A stretch of 63,551 nt of DNA, filler included, from Globobulimina sp. (GCA_003354225.1; 46 parts of 46 records of this genome joined end to end with filler, not necessarily neighbours in it), one strand, 5' to 3'; positions 13,751-59,405 are shown, counted from the first letter of the whole stretch. The notes: generated from the sequence alone by a model not told the origin. Numbers and translations: made by a program.

Positions 13751-14070
13751 NNNNNNNNNNNNNNNNNNNNNNNNNNNNNNNNNNNNNNNNNNNNTTAATT
13801 AATTAANNNNNNNNNNNNNNNNNNNNNNNNNNNNNNNNNNNNNNNNNNNNTCACTGTGTCAATTTGCTGATTTTAATCTATATTCTTATTGATTGCTTGC
13901 CCTACGTTTGTCTAACATTTTAATTTTATAATTAATATTGTGTAAGTAATACATTAATAACGAATCATTATTATCGTTCGATCCTTTAGAAAGACCTTGC
14001 ATTGTGATTGATTGCGTTTAGCAGTTGAATCTTTAATTGATTCTTTTTTTTTTATTCATGCTCATTAAAT

Positions 14071-15135
14071 TTGCACATTAATTTACATTTTAGCTCAAAT
14101 AATCCGTTTAATCAAAAAGAATGCATATTCTTTTCCTTTTTATTTAGATCGATTTGTTTGAATGATTGTGAGATTAAACACAAATCATTCACAAAGAAAC
14201 TGATTAAAAGAATGATAAATCGTGATTTCCCCCCTGTTGTTATTAGAAAAATCCTTCAAAAACGAAAATTGCCGCAATACATTAATCGCGACAAATATTT
14301 GGACAAATTGGAAGAAAATAGATTACGTAAATATTACCAATCTGTTTTAAAGATTTATGATGAAAATATATGGGGCCCAGAGCATAGATTTTTAGATGAA
14401 GAAAAATTGAATTTATTAAAAGCAAAATATTCAGATATCGATCAAGACGAAGATGAGATAAAAATGATTTATTTCAAGAAAATATATCAACAGTTATTCG
14501 ACGATGACAATCGATTTAGGGAGATTTTAAAATTAACATTTTAAAAGCATTTTGCCTCAAGATTTTGCAGATATGATTAAATTATCTATTTGTAATAAGA
14601 CTGATGACAAACTCATGAGATATTTGAATTAATTATCATGGATTTTATTATTATGCTTTTGCCCCTTTTTTATATTTTTCATTTTTTCTATTTTTTAGAT
14701 ACAATTTTTAGTTTACGTCTATGTTTATTAAAATTGCAATGGAAAATAAAATATATGATTTTTTATTCTCTTTTATTTAATTTAATATTTAATTTTTGTG
14801 TTTTTGATTTGTGGAGAATTAAAGTCGTGTATTTTCAACATACACTTTCGTTTTACCTTTGTTTTTTAGTTTTTTCTATATATTATAGTATGTTTAGCGA
14901 TTTTGTGTGTGTTTTTATATTGTTTCACAAACTGTGATACAGCTCAAAGTTTTTTTGAATATTTATCAAGAAACTTTCAGTTCTTTTATTTCACCTTAGT
15001 TTATAAAGTGTGAATCAGTCCAATTGTGGACGAAACTAGTCACTAAATTATTTAATTAATTGTTTATTAATTTCATTGATAAGTGAATCTCGTAACTAAA
15101 TATAGTTTATCTATCCCTTTAGTCCTACGTCTCCC
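14071..15135 (+). mobile_element. 5'-truncated, decayed Penelope-like element 3' end (RT thumb and 3' tail)
   Basis: LHFSSNNPFNQKECIFFSFLFRSICLND...LIKRMINRDFP is a PLE thumb pattern. The frame continues past a stop/frameshift to LSICNKTDDKLMRYLN*. Confidence 0.7.
14997..15050 (+). ncRNA. Type I hammerhead ribozyme candidate with variant core
   Basis: Stem I tagttt[ataa]agt/actaaatta, core GTGAATCA, stem II gtcca-attg-tggac, GAA, palindromic stem III actagt, cleavage triplet GTC (C15041). Confidence 0.65.
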
Positions 15136-15235
15136 NNNNNNNNNNNNNNNNNNNNNNNNNNNNNNNNNNNNNNNNNNNNTTAATTAATTAANNNNNNNNN
15201 NNNNNNNNNNNNNNNNNNNNNNNNNNNNNNNNNNN

Positions 15236-16520
15236 CAAATTTATAGAAAGTATGGTGTAGGTTAGGTTTATTATATCCATTTGCAAGTAGTGTCTGTATC
15301 AACTGTCCAATTCTAGGAGCAAAGTCATTAAAATTATTACAAATTCTAGCCATTCTGATTAGTTGAGTATAAAAGACTTTATACCCAGTTGATGTAAACC
15401 GTATCTGACCACATGAAAGTTGAAATCATCTGTTTTATTGTAGACTGCTATTCTCCTTTTACCAGGACTTAGGCTAACCATTATGTCAAGAAAGCAACTT
15501 TCATATTTTGATTTAGCTGTGTTTTCCAGTGTTAAGCAGCTTGGGTAGATGTGTTTACTGTGTTCTAAGAATTTTTCACAGTTAATGGATAAGATGTCAT
15601 CAATATATCTCATAGTGTGACCCATTGTTTTCGCTATAACTTTATTGTTATTGTCCGTTAGGAAACTATATTCAAGCATACTCAATACTAGATCTGCAAT
15701 TAGCGGACTAGCATTTCCGCCCATTGGCACACCACATATTTGTTTAAATATGAAGCCAGCAAATTTTACATATGTTTCATCAATAACATTATTAATTAAA
15801 CACTTTACCTCATCCTTATCTAATGCTGCTAAATATTTACTTGTAACCTGGTCTGCATAGTATACATTATTATATGTAAAGACTATGAATCTTTTGTTTG
15901 CATGATCAAATAACATATTGCAGAGTTTAAAAAGTTGTTCCTTTATAATATGCAGTGGGAACATTGTATATAGTGAACTAAAATCAGCTGTTACTATACT
16001 ATTTAAATTGTTAGCTTGTATTTTATGTTCTAGTTTTCTATGTGCTTCTAAACTGCCTTTGATAGACCAGTAACAGTTAAATCCCTTTCTTTTACTAACT
16101 GTTGTACAATATCTTTCAAAATGTTGTTGAAAATGCGTTAGTATTCTATGTAGAGTTTTTGACATTGGTTTAGTTGAAGAGTTACTAGCCCCAGCGATAA
16201 ATCGAAATTTATAAGGATTTTTATGTAATTTAGGTGTCGCAAATATAACTGGTAAACATTCATCTTCTTTGTCAAATTTAATATTTCCTGTTTGAATGGA
16301 AAGATTCTGATGCTTGGTAATAAGTTTATTTTCTTCCATACCACAGGGCTTATAGACATCATTTCCTACGGCTATACAGGTACCATTATTATCAATACTA
16401 ACACCAAGTTCTTTACACATAACCTCTATATAATACTTTTTACAAATAAAAATAAAATTATTGCTTGCTTTATATGCTGGGGCCATGACGTATTCCAATT
16501 GTAGTCTTTCAAGTTCCCTT
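15236..16520 (-). mobile_element. Penelope-like reverse transcriptase fragment, frameshifted
   Basis: PKLHKNPYKFRFIA, ADFSSLYT, GVPMGGNASPLIADL, RYIDDIL, FLDI, YNKTDDFNF. Continues in another frame as SQLIRMARICNNF...LLANGY. Confidence 0.92.
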
Positions 16521-47060: not shown

Positions 47061-48343
47061 TTGATGGGCATTATACCAATATGGAAAGTTGGACTGTGTC
47101 AAATATTCATAAATTTAAAAATATTGACAAATTATCAATAAAATTATCAATTTTAGACAGTTTAGACTTATTTAATGTATTTCAGAAAGTTAAACATTTA
47201 ACATTTTATGGCGATCCTCGAGATGGATATCCTTATGTTCCAACTATGAAATTATTGCCATTATTACAAACAATTTCTTTCGTAGAATTCAATGATATGG
47301 AGTCTTTATTACATTTTCTGAGTCCGATTGAAACAGCTCATTTCAATAAAATTATTCATCAATTAACATCGATTGCGTTTGTTGACAGTGTTTGTCATTC
47401 ATTGGAAGATGACGGGTTTGATCCTGATGAAGATGCCGAACTATATGAAAAATACCAAAATATAGCAAATTTTATATTGGCATCGCAACCAAATCGTTTA
47501 CAAGTACTAAAATTTGAAAATTCATATTTTGGCAAAACTATTGATCCAAAGTGTATTGAATTTGTAAATATTGAAAGAATTCAAACCTCATTACCAAATT
47601 TAAAAGGATTTGTTTATGGCAAATATACTTCTTTTGAATATAACTCTGAATATAATGAAAATGACAATTTATTTTTTTCTTTAACAACACATATTTTATC
47701 AAATTTAATATTATTTAGTAAATTGGAGTCAATCCATACCCATTCATCGACAGATCAGTTAATAGCATTATATTTAAACAATAATAATATAAATGCATTA
47801 AAAAAAATATCTGAATTATGTATTTCCGTTGGATTACAATCAATGAATCAAAATACATCACCATTCAATACACGTTCATTCAACAGATTTGTACCAAATT
47901 TGGAGAAATTATGTTTAGTGATTAAAATATCAGATAATGATAAATCGCATTTGACAAATTTTGAAAAAGTAATTAAATCCATCTTACTTAATTTAGGAAA
48001 ATTGAACGTATTACAAATTGTAGCGATAATTGAAGATGAAGCTGGTATCGATCCATCATTTTGTATTAAAAAAATAAATGTTTTAACTGAGCTTTCAAAG
48101 GTATTGGTTAACGCATTCATTTGGATACGAAAAAGAAATGAAAAACAACCACTATTATTCAAATTTCATGTAAAATCATCACATTCGCAAAGGAATGCAA
48201 AATGTAAAACTAATAATGCGTCGAAATTAAGAGCATTCGTTGATAGCATTCAAAGTATGATAGTAAATTATTTGGTGACTTATCCGATTGGAAAATTACA
48301 ATTTAAATTAAGTTGGAATATATCGGAACATTTTTGGTTGGCA
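47061..48343 (+). CDS. LRR-like hypothetical protein, paralog A (internal fragment)
   Basis: Open frame; closely similar to 58124-59405. Confidence 0.65.
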
Positions 48344-58123: not shown

Positions 58124-59405
58124 AGATATGATCCATATAAATATGCTGAAATGGATTATGAGCAGGTTGGAATCGATGGGCATTATACCAATATGGAAAG
58201 TTGGACTGCGTCAAATATTCATAAATTTAAAAATGTGGACAAATTATCAATAAAATTATCAATTTTAGACCGTTTAGATTTATTTAATGTATTTCAGAAA
58301 GTTAAACATTTAACATTTTGTAACGACCCTCAAGATCCGTACCCTGAGGTTGAAAATATGGAGGAAATGAAATTAATGCCATTATTACAAACAATTTCGT
58401 TCGTAGAATTTAATGATATATGGACTTTATTACATTTTCTAGATCCTAATTTCAATAAAATTATTCATCAATTAACATCGATTGCGTTTGTTGACAGTGT
58501 TTGTGGTTTGCACCCTGAGGAATATGATGAACCATATGAAAGATACCAAAATATAGCAAATTTTATATTGCCATCAGAGCCAAATCGTTTACAAGTTCTA
58601 AAATTTGAAAATTCATATTTTCGCAAAAGTACTGATCCAAAGTGTACTGATACAAATAATAAATTTGCAAATATTGAACGAATTAAAACCTCATTATCAA
58701 ATTTAAAAGGATTGGTTTTTGATCATGGCCTATCTGCAAGATTTAGCGATGACAATTTATATTTTACTTTAACAACAAATATTTTATCAAATTTAATATT
58801 ATTTCGTAAATTAGAGTCAATCCATACCCATTCATCGACAGATCAGTTAATAGCATTATATTTAAATAATAATAATACAAATGCATTGGTAAAAATATCT
58901 GAATTGTGTATTTCCGTCGGATTGCACTCAATGAATCAAAATACATCACCATTGCATGTACGGAATTTGCCTACGTTGCCAATGCTTTCACTCAAGAGAT
59001 TTGTACCCAATTTGGAGAAATTATGTTTAGTGATTAAAATATCAGATAATGATAAAATGTATTTGCCAAATTTCGAAATAGTAATTGAAGCAATTTTACA
59101 TAATTTAACAAAATTGAAAGTATTACAGATTGTGGCGATAATTGAAGATAAAACTAATACCGATCCATCATTTTGTATTAAAAAAATAAATATTTTAAGT
59201 GAGCTTTCAAAAGTATTGGTTAACGCATTTATTTGGATACGAAATAGAAACGAATCCGGAAAACAGCAGTTATTATTTAAATTTCATGTAAAATCATCTC
59301 ATTCAAAAAGCAATGCAAAATGTAAAACTTGTGAGCGTGCAGGTGATAATGCATTAGAATTACGAGCATTCGTTGATAGCATTCAAAGTATGATAGTAAA
59401 TTATT
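58124..59405 (+). CDS. LRR-like hypothetical protein, paralog B (internal fragment)
   Basis: Closely similar to 47061-48343 with clustered indels. Confidence 0.65.

Follow-up and report, generated by a model that had tools for sequence, protein, structure and literature searches.

The stretch of DNA analyzed here, called the window below, comprises 63,551 bases of an assembly of Globobulimina sp. (GCA_003354225.1). On the plus strand of one of its contigs, it contains a block of 54 bases (positions 14997-15050) with the topology of a type I hammerhead ribozyme, in which the 5' box of the core reads GUGAAUCA in place of CUGANGA. The block is situated in sense orientation behind an open reading frame (ORF) for a telomerase-like reverse transcriptase (RT), and it lies within an island that is conserved among the sister copies of the element. 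Since canonical hammerheads are found in most clades of Penelope-like elements (PLEs), these circumstances together make it fairly probable that the block is hammerhead-derived. A narrower reading, i.e., that the block is a catalytically active hammerhead variant and that the protist retroelement whose 3' end it occupies is telomerase-like (Penelope-like) and lacks an endonuclease, is held here tentatively and with somewhat less than even confidence, as judged from the sequence.

Anatomy of the Hammerhead-Like Block

The block is composed of the following segments:

14997-15009, plus strand: 5' strand of stem I, consisting of TAGTTT (14997-15002), a bulge ATAA (15003-15006) and AGT (15007-15009)
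15010-15017, plus strand: 5' part of the core, GTGAATCA at the DNA level
15018-15031, plus strand: stem II, consisting of GUCCA (15018-15022), a loop AUUG (15023-15026) and UGGAC (15027-15031)
15032-15041, plus strand: GAA (G12, A13, and A14), the palindrome ACUAGU of helix III (15035-15040; A15.1, C15.2, U, A, G16.2, and U16.1) and C17
15042-15050, plus strand: 3' strand of stem I, consisting of ACU (15042-15044) and AAAUUA (15045-15050)

This anatomy had been named in a first-pass annotation of the window; every letter of it was confirmed, and all its pairings can be drawn, one of them being a G-U pair (14999-15048). In stem I, 14997-15002 are paired with 15045-15050 and, beyond the 4-nt bulge, 15007-15009 with 15042-15044. 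G15018 and C15031 form the G10.1-C11.1 pair, A15035 and U15040 are present as A15.1-U16.1, and C15041 is the C17 (H at position 17) of a GUC, so that cleavage is predicted between 15041 and 15042. All hammerhead features outside the core can be identified in the sequence, helix III solely as an intermolecular palindrome.

The core itself reads G3, U4, G5, A6, then A and U, i.e., two nucleotides where a single N7 is expected, followed by C8 and A9. Compared with CUGANGA, C3 is replaced by G and G8 by C, and one extra nucleotide is found between A6 and position 8; the 5' box is, therefore, not canonical, whilst the GAAA is present. G15010 (position 3) and C15016 (position 8) are able to form a Watson-Crick pair, which is inverted relative to C3-G8. 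Thus, all three deviations are found within an 8-nt box, and the two at positions 3 and 8 together re-create a Watson-Crick pair, which looks more like compensation than like neutral decay.

Within a monomer, helix III would comprise 2 bp round a 2-nt loop; it could, therefore, be formed only between two molecules. The short palindromic helix III, ACUAGU, and the G10.1-C11.1 pair are both features of dimeric PLE hammerheads.

Downstream of the block, a weak direct repeat of 15032-15054 (similar to GAAAC..CACUAAAU) is located at 15085-15109 on the plus strand, at a distance of 53 nt; its score was reached by 7 of 500 shuffled sequences. This repeat might be what is left of a partial tandem or a tail.

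Conservation Among Sister Copies

Sister copies were sought among the contigs, not the reads, of one public run (X1), at a likeness of at least 80%, and were evaluated from summary tables of listed differences, in which differences within ~30 bases of the ends of a piece are not listed; the listed differences leave aside 60 substitution rows and 11 indel rows of these tables. No RNA run was found among those listed as containing this stretch. Run X1 contains a third of the sampled words of the motif contig, and 58 of its contigs align over the whole of the latter. As 53 of these 58 are less than 95% alike, the motif contig is a member of a diverged multi-copy family.

Approximately four sister contigs cover the motif. 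Within 14997-15050, an A>T change is listed at 15022 in three contigs and another at 15023; in addition, a T is inserted behind 15022, 15026 is lost, and one contig lacks one base at 15047 in the distal part of stem I. The positions 15022, 15023, and 15026 belong to the closing pair and the loop of stem II; hence, the 4-bp stem GUCC/GGAC is kept, and the loop varies in sequence and length. The motif with 5-8 nt on each side forms an island:

14989-15055, plus strand: island almost free of listed substitutions, the nearest listed changes outside being at 14988 and 15056

Substitutions are listed in this island at 15022 and 15023 only, and indels at 15022, 15026, and 15047. In the sister contig with a depth of 9.45, one substitution is listed in the 67 nt of 14989-15055, whereas the flanks, 58 nt in all, have 13 (Fisher p 2.6e-4).

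The unusual core could have arisen by decay of this particular copy from a canonical CUGANGA that is retained by its sisters, and the first-pass annotation had named canonical CTGANGA in sister copies as one of the observations that would overturn its interpretation. Other parts of the copy are indeed damaged, as shown by a frameshift near 14540 and by deleted sequence upstream of 14065. However, the covering contigs keep GTGAATCA, and no change in 15010-15017 is listed, not even for the best-supported contig (depth 37.6), for which changes at 15022 and 15023 are listed. Thus, among the listed changes, the motif is not a private decay product, and this explanation is largely refuted and very improbable. 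The swapped 3-8 pair and the two nucleotides at N7 rather appear to be carried across the family, as far as seen in the sister copies.

The Upstream ORF Belongs to a Telomerase-Like RT Family

The coding part of the element is represented as follows:

13851-15135: contig of the motif, unplaced, 1285 bp, with linkers on both sides; the sole real context of the motif
14065-14541, plus strand: C-terminal part of the RT ORF (thumb-like region and C-terminal domain), from tblastn, HMMER, and the substitution pattern
14540-14632, plus strand: last 30 codons in the next reading frame, with the stop codon of the family at 14630-14632, from tblastn (frame +3)

The ORF is readable at 14065-14629 on the plus strand with a frameshift near 14535-14541. 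Searches by tblastn with relatives yielded E values from 1e-39 to 8e-26 at 37-47% identity, and a second segment in frame +3 matched the C terminus, which ends in YLN. An alignment with the relatives likewise shows the C-terminal segment in the next frame. The motif starts 365 nt downstream of the stop codon, in sense. The RT core, which is expected upstream (13851-14064), is undetectable in this copy. The first-pass annotation had described the motif as sense to, and downstream of, a PLE ORF. This holds for the ORF at 14065-14632, which is on the same contig, but does not apply to the RT ORF at 15359-16520, as that one is encoded on the other strand of a different contig, past a linker.

Among the sister copies, of the 21 substitutions listed in the ORF, 15 are synonymous and 15 affect the third position of a codon (p 4e-4), from which it follows that the family evolved as coding sequence. 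One sister contig has 37 extra and 6 fewer bases in 13926-14043. In another observation on the ORF, one sister contig skips 109 of its bases (14336-14446); the ends of this gap, CC..AA, are not intron-like, and it represents an internal deletion variant.

An exhaustive HMMER search identified 25 relatives, 10 of them at E<=1e-10, the best one at 1.8e-27 with 46% identity. The matches cover the last ~140 residues of relatives of up to 741 residues (proteins of 250-740 amino acids). The ORF at 14065-14632 itself gave no Pfam family, no word-based homologs among proteins of near its length or longer, and no usable Atlas match. No Pfam family was found in any of the 12 relatives tested either; relative P0027 has PF26215 on record, which was not reproduced by local Pfam at E<=1. 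The relatives show the motifs DKxMG, PxxKxHKxxxWR, DVKxLYD, GxGTGYSHSxxLAN, KRYIDD, FLDT, and IYEK, in this order, of which PxxKxHKxxxWR, YIDD/YVDD, and FLD are RT motifs. A profile of 14 relatives was aligned by hhalign with the RT at 15359-16520 in the window with a probability of 97% and an E value of 1.1e-10, over 266 columns that span the RT motifs. A profile of the family gave no matches among PDB sequences at E<=10. The AlphaFold model of a 650-residue relative has a mean predicted local distance difference test (pLDDT) score of 78.8. When this model was compared with the PDB by Foldseek, ranks 1-5 were occupied by telomerase RTs (TERT chains; best E 1.7e-8), and group II intron, retron, and DRT reverse transcriptases were found at lower ranks.

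None of 27 relatives fitted a loose GIY...YIG expression, and no Pfam nuclease was found in those tested. A DKxMG string is located ~90 residues ahead of KxHK in 7 of the 27, many of which are fragments; it was likened to the DKG of PLEs by position alone. In viral contigs, a pattern derived from the alignment of the relatives gave 58 matches, none of them a relative. The single named relative is from a foraminifer (EukProt set), which fits with the many long orphan ORFs in the window.

According to PMC8557442, the RTs of PLEs and telomerase are sister groups, and the nuclease is absent from two PLE clades. Since the family is telomerase-like in its predicted fold, it is here called Penelope-like, and, as GIY-YIG was not found, it would be compatible solely with the endonuclease-less PLE clades. 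On sequence and modeling, an endonuclease-less, telomerase-like and, hence, Penelope-like retroelement is the best description of the ORF family, with its likeness being to the endonuclease-less kind. The endonuclease-less Athena and Coprina PLEs, as described in the same source, resemble the present element in having a telomerase-like RT without GIY-YIG and a hammerhead near the 3' end. In contrast, reverse-complement telomeric repeats adjoin their hammerhead, and no such repeats are present in 15042-15135. The RT family that comprises 14065-14632 and its relatives, missed by Pfam and with a modeled telomerase-RT-like fold, may deserve a profile of its own.

The region between the ORF and the motif contains two hairpins in the minimum-free-energy fold of 14905-15070:

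14921-14941 and 14942-14981, plus strand: two predicted hairpins in the 3' untranslated region

The z score of this fold is -2.0 for the plus strand and -2.7 for the minus strand. The sister copies cannot be aligned from ~14818 to 14942, and alignment is regained at 14943-14957. For three sister contigs it breaks off at 14943, and the consensus of their loose ends again contains an inverted repeat. The hairpin region just upstream of the motif may be a structure that is kept with different letters.

Comparison With Known Hammerheads

In the published descriptions, helix III of PLE hammerheads is short and palindromic, and action as dimers has been proposed for them (PMC4209133, PMC6765202), as the first-pass annotation had it. 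Like those described (Cervera and de la Pena, 2014, PMC4209133; PMC6765202), the block has a type I topology and is located in sense near the 3' end of an element with a telomerase-like RT, and it shares with them the G10.1-C11.1 pair and a very short palindromic helix III, implying action as a dimer and low expected activity. Unlike those, its core reads GUGAAUCA instead of CUGANGA, a tandem partner was not seen in the 1285-bp contig, and the host element is from a protist and without a detected GIY-YIG. The block would work like dimeric PLE hammerheads and probably descends from them. According to the cited account, canonical hammerheads are found in all PLE clades, with and without endonuclease, except for Naiad and most Chlamys elements (PMC8557442).

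Natural covariants with a U3-A8 pair exist (Perreault et al., 2011, PMC3088659; Cercyon PLE of Schistosoma mansoni, PMC4209133). They likewise have a Watson-Crick 3-8 pair, with other letters, and the one in Cercyon is in a PLE. In the present motif, in contrast, the pair is an inverted G3-C8, which adds a possible G3:C17 mispair. A natural A6a variant shares the extra nucleotide between A6 and position 8; its slow cleavage is reported to be due to a contact of the A6-N7 phosphate with U4 (Perreault et al., 2011, PMC3088659). Its core is otherwise canonical, whereas the present motif has both the insertion and the 3-8 swap. Finally, engineered C3G/G8C double mutants have the same letters at positions 3 and 8 and show partial rescue of cleavage relative to the single mutants (PMC11167929, PMC8495972, PMC3884650), including in a PLE hammerhead (PMC11167929, PMC8495972); here too, the first-pass annotation agreed with what these sources describe. 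Those are laboratory constructs, whereas the motif described here is natural and common to a repeat family. In the literature on G3-C8 or C3G/G8C hammerheads, engineered variants only were encountered; the supplements of PMC8557442, PMC4209133, and PMC3088659 (Figures S6-S7) may already contain natural ones.

From these analogies, the following course of events can be envisaged. Transcripts of the element would fold stems I and II, and two motifs, located in tandem or neighboring copies or in two transcripts, would pair via ACUAGU to form helix III. The RNA might then slowly cut itself after C15041, whereby the 3' end of the RNA of the element would be either defined or released. The cleavage rate is expected to be low, and cleavage is probably helper-dependent, because activity is restored incompletely by the swap, insertion after A6 is known from a low-activity variant, and G3 can pair with C17.

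Is the Block a Functional Hammerhead?

A considerable number of observations weigh against an active hammerhead, and some of them against a hammerhead origin of the block altogether. The first concerns chance. A relaxed descriptor was used in which positions 3 and 8 may form any Watson-Crick pair and A6 may be separated from position 8 by 1 or 2 nt, and which further demands a stem II of at least 4 bp closed by G10.1-C11.1, GAAA, A15.1/U16.1, H17, and a 3-bp stem I. The motif is the single site in the window that fits this descriptor. In random sequence of the composition of the window, 10 sites were found in 1.44 billion bases, i.e., ~8e-4 are expected per window on both strands, and none was found in 10 Mb of first-order Markov sequence. 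Within the window alone, the site would thus hardly be expected by chance. Over ~250,000 windows, this extrapolates to ~200 chance matches; therefore, the count alone is not decisive, and it is the context and the relatives that decide. Thus, the block could be an unrelated, conserved 3'-terminal stem-loop that is hammerhead-like by chance and was picked by a permissive reading of a very large scan, the figure of ~200 being our own extrapolation. The same explanation is favored by a loose search with the pattern from the first-pass annotation, which gave three sites in the window against 0.63 expected, one of them, 76 nt upstream, being clearly not a hammerhead, and also by the presence of other hairpins in the region and the lack of support from covariance models and, apart from stem II, from folding (see below). 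However, chance would also need to have placed the look-alike in sense orientation, not more than a few hundred bases downstream of the stop codon of a telomerase-like RT, a context that was established independently of the motif, and on a conserved island. Moreover, a strict descriptor, which in addition demands that stem II consist of 5 Watson-Crick pairs and that helix III be palindromic, found no sites in 1.44 Gb of random sequence. Weighing both sides, we consider a fortuitous resemblance unlikely, albeit to be taken seriously.

Further pattern searches were largely negative. A canonical-core pattern gave 16 overlapping matches in the window, none of them with a stem II and none on the plus strand of the motif contig. 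A gapped DNA pattern without the core gave one match in metagenome contigs, which has no UGA box ahead of it, one in a GC-rich metagenome-assembled genome among prokaryote genomes, which has no core, and none in viral contigs; the two matches were taken as chance. No second copy of the motif and no tandem repeat was found in the 1285-bp contig or the window, which, for a contig this short, is weak evidence.

Second, the Rfam hammerhead models (RF00163, RF00008, and RF02275-RF02277) gave no matches at the gathering score in the whole window. At E<=10, the three Rfam matches on 331 nt and the single one on 69 nt were not hammerheads. As the tests on the core and with the covariance models failed, the motif was not filed as a member of the hammerhead family.

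Third, folding predictions favor other structures. For the 54-mer, the free energy of the structure proposed in the first-pass annotation is -5.0 kcal/mol as compared with -9.0 kcal/mol for the minimum, and the folding z score of the 54-mer is -1.24, with 25 of 200 shuffled sequences folding equally well. G15010 (G3) pairs with C15041 (C17) with a probability of 0.67, and, in the minimum-energy fold, this G3:C17 pairing extends stem I through the cleavage site. The pairing probability of stem I is 0.31-0.67 in the 54-mer and drops to at most 0.002 in a context of 131 nt, where GUGAA is taken by UUCAC at 14990-14994 in a competing hairpin (probability 0.73-0.96). In the minimum-free-energy fold of a dimer of two 54-mers, the palindromic helix III is not used. 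Stem II, with a probability of 0.99, is the sole robustly predicted stem. A G3-C8 variant was reported to be more active with G17 than with C17 (PMC3884650, as "data not shown"), which, together with the predicted G3:C17 pairing, suggests a trap.

Fourth, the comparison with PLE hammerheads is imperfect. In the PLE hammerheads described from protists, helix III is long and action is monomeric (PMC4209133), whereas helix III is short here, and A15017 is directly followed by G15018 with no nucleotide between them, at variance with a feature of dimeric PLE hammerheads. The listed changes in the sister copies include no compensatory changes in the stems, which are invariant, and they come from summary tables of one run. 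In addition, the copy of the element in the window is broken by the frameshift and upstream deletions.

Thus, the interpretation in the first-pass annotation is borne out with regard to the anatomy, the location in the sense 3' flank of a retroelement, and the sharing of the core by sister copies, and it finds no support in the Rfam searches, the folding predictions, and the search for a second copy in the contig.

Alternatively, ribozyme activity could have been lost in an ancestral element, and the block, hammerhead-derived but catalytically dead, could have been kept in all descendants for another role at the 3' end, for example as a structure that is recognized by the element's own RT to start reverse transcription. 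Each of the deviations lowers activity in the variants described (PMC3088659, PMC8495972, PMC3884650), and non-hammerhead pairings are favored by folding. Furthermore, hammerhead-dead PLE mutants were reported still to insert in vitro, the activity being dispensable there (PMC11167929), and the PLEs of the Naiad clade and most of those of Chlamys are successful without a hammerhead (PMC8557442). Conservation extends to the block as a whole, which any function at the 3' end would explain. On the other hand, a dead core does not need complementarity between positions 3 and 8, GAAA, A9, or U4-G5-A6, and none of these is altered, in contrast to the drifting loop II. On balance, a dead relic with another function appears rather unlikely. 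The known cost of each deviation and the folding predictions lean away from activity. However, the confinement of the deviations to an 8-nt box, the restored pair, the intactness of the rest of the core, and the drift of loop II lean toward retained, slow activity of the block rather than toward a dead relic.

Composition and Other Contents of the Window

The window is a pseudo-molecule in which 46 pieces, each of 1282-1285 bp and arranged by length, are connected by 45 linkers of 100 bp with the structure N44-TTAATTAATTAA-N44; 90 runs of exactly 44 N are present. It consists of unplaced, unlinked contigs of ~1.28 kb, joined via linkers with stop codons in six frames. Because the contigs were joined artificially, adjoining pieces are uninformative on each other, and any reading that spans a linker is an artifact. 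No piece resembling the motif contig was found among the other pieces of the window by blastn and tblastx, and a tRNA scan of the window detected no tRNA genes. Next to the motif contig, the window contains:

15136-15235: artificial linker with stop codons in six frames, non-genomic
15236-16520, minus strand: second contig with a different, distantly related RT ORF (15359-16519), from an RVT_1 match and hhalign; unlinked to the motif

Among the ORFs of the window, the one at 15359-16520 (minus strand) is alone in being seen as an RT by Pfam (RVT_1, E 2e-5, 24.8 bits at a cut-off of 29.6). Its look-alikes in the Atlas contain DUF8422, HTH_animal, and RVT_1, and, when compared with PDB sequences, it gave one match, which is irrelevant. 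The ORF goes on in another frame at 15236-15425. It is probably from another Penelope-like family in the same assembly.

The contig at 16621-17904 (plus strand; ~25% G+C) contains the end of a gene for an AAA-type ATPase, with a weak match to AAA_lid_3, directly followed by a ResB/Ccs1 gene for cytochrome c biogenesis (E 1e-49). It looks like algal plastid DNA, from prey, a symbiont, or kept plastids, in a non-algal assembly, the gene identities beyond Pfam being our own reading. The contigs at 47061-48343 and 58124-59405 (plus strand) are each filled by an open frame of 427 residues without a Pfam family. The two frames share similar stretches (pattern matches at 47424 and 58515) and constitute an orphan paralogous family.

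Implications

If the motif is dead or accidental, it is part of an ordinary conserved 3' end of a retroelement. If it cuts, it would be a new natural variant of the hammerhead in a retroelement family that is invisible to Pfam. The most far-reaching reading, i.e., a natural G3-C8 hammerhead with a two-nucleotide position 7 that is active family-wide and marks an unrecognized endonuclease-less Penelope-like family of Foraminifera or other Rhizaria, missed by RVT_1 and CUGANGA searches, is, on the present sequences, doubtful. As genomic searches for hammerheads are anchored on CUGANGA, a G3-C8 core with an extra nucleotide in a repeat family would, if true, mean that ribozymes have been undercounted. 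The motif would then also allow the roles of the 3-8 pair and of the A6-N7 backbone to be examined in a natural molecule. In the literature on foraminifera and retrotransposons, nothing relevant was found among the papers listed, and, to our knowledge, foraminiferal mobile elements have hardly been described. Thus, an RT family that is invisible to Pfam, with a telomerase-like predicted fold and a relative in a foraminifer, bears on the spread of PLEs and their ribozymes among protists.

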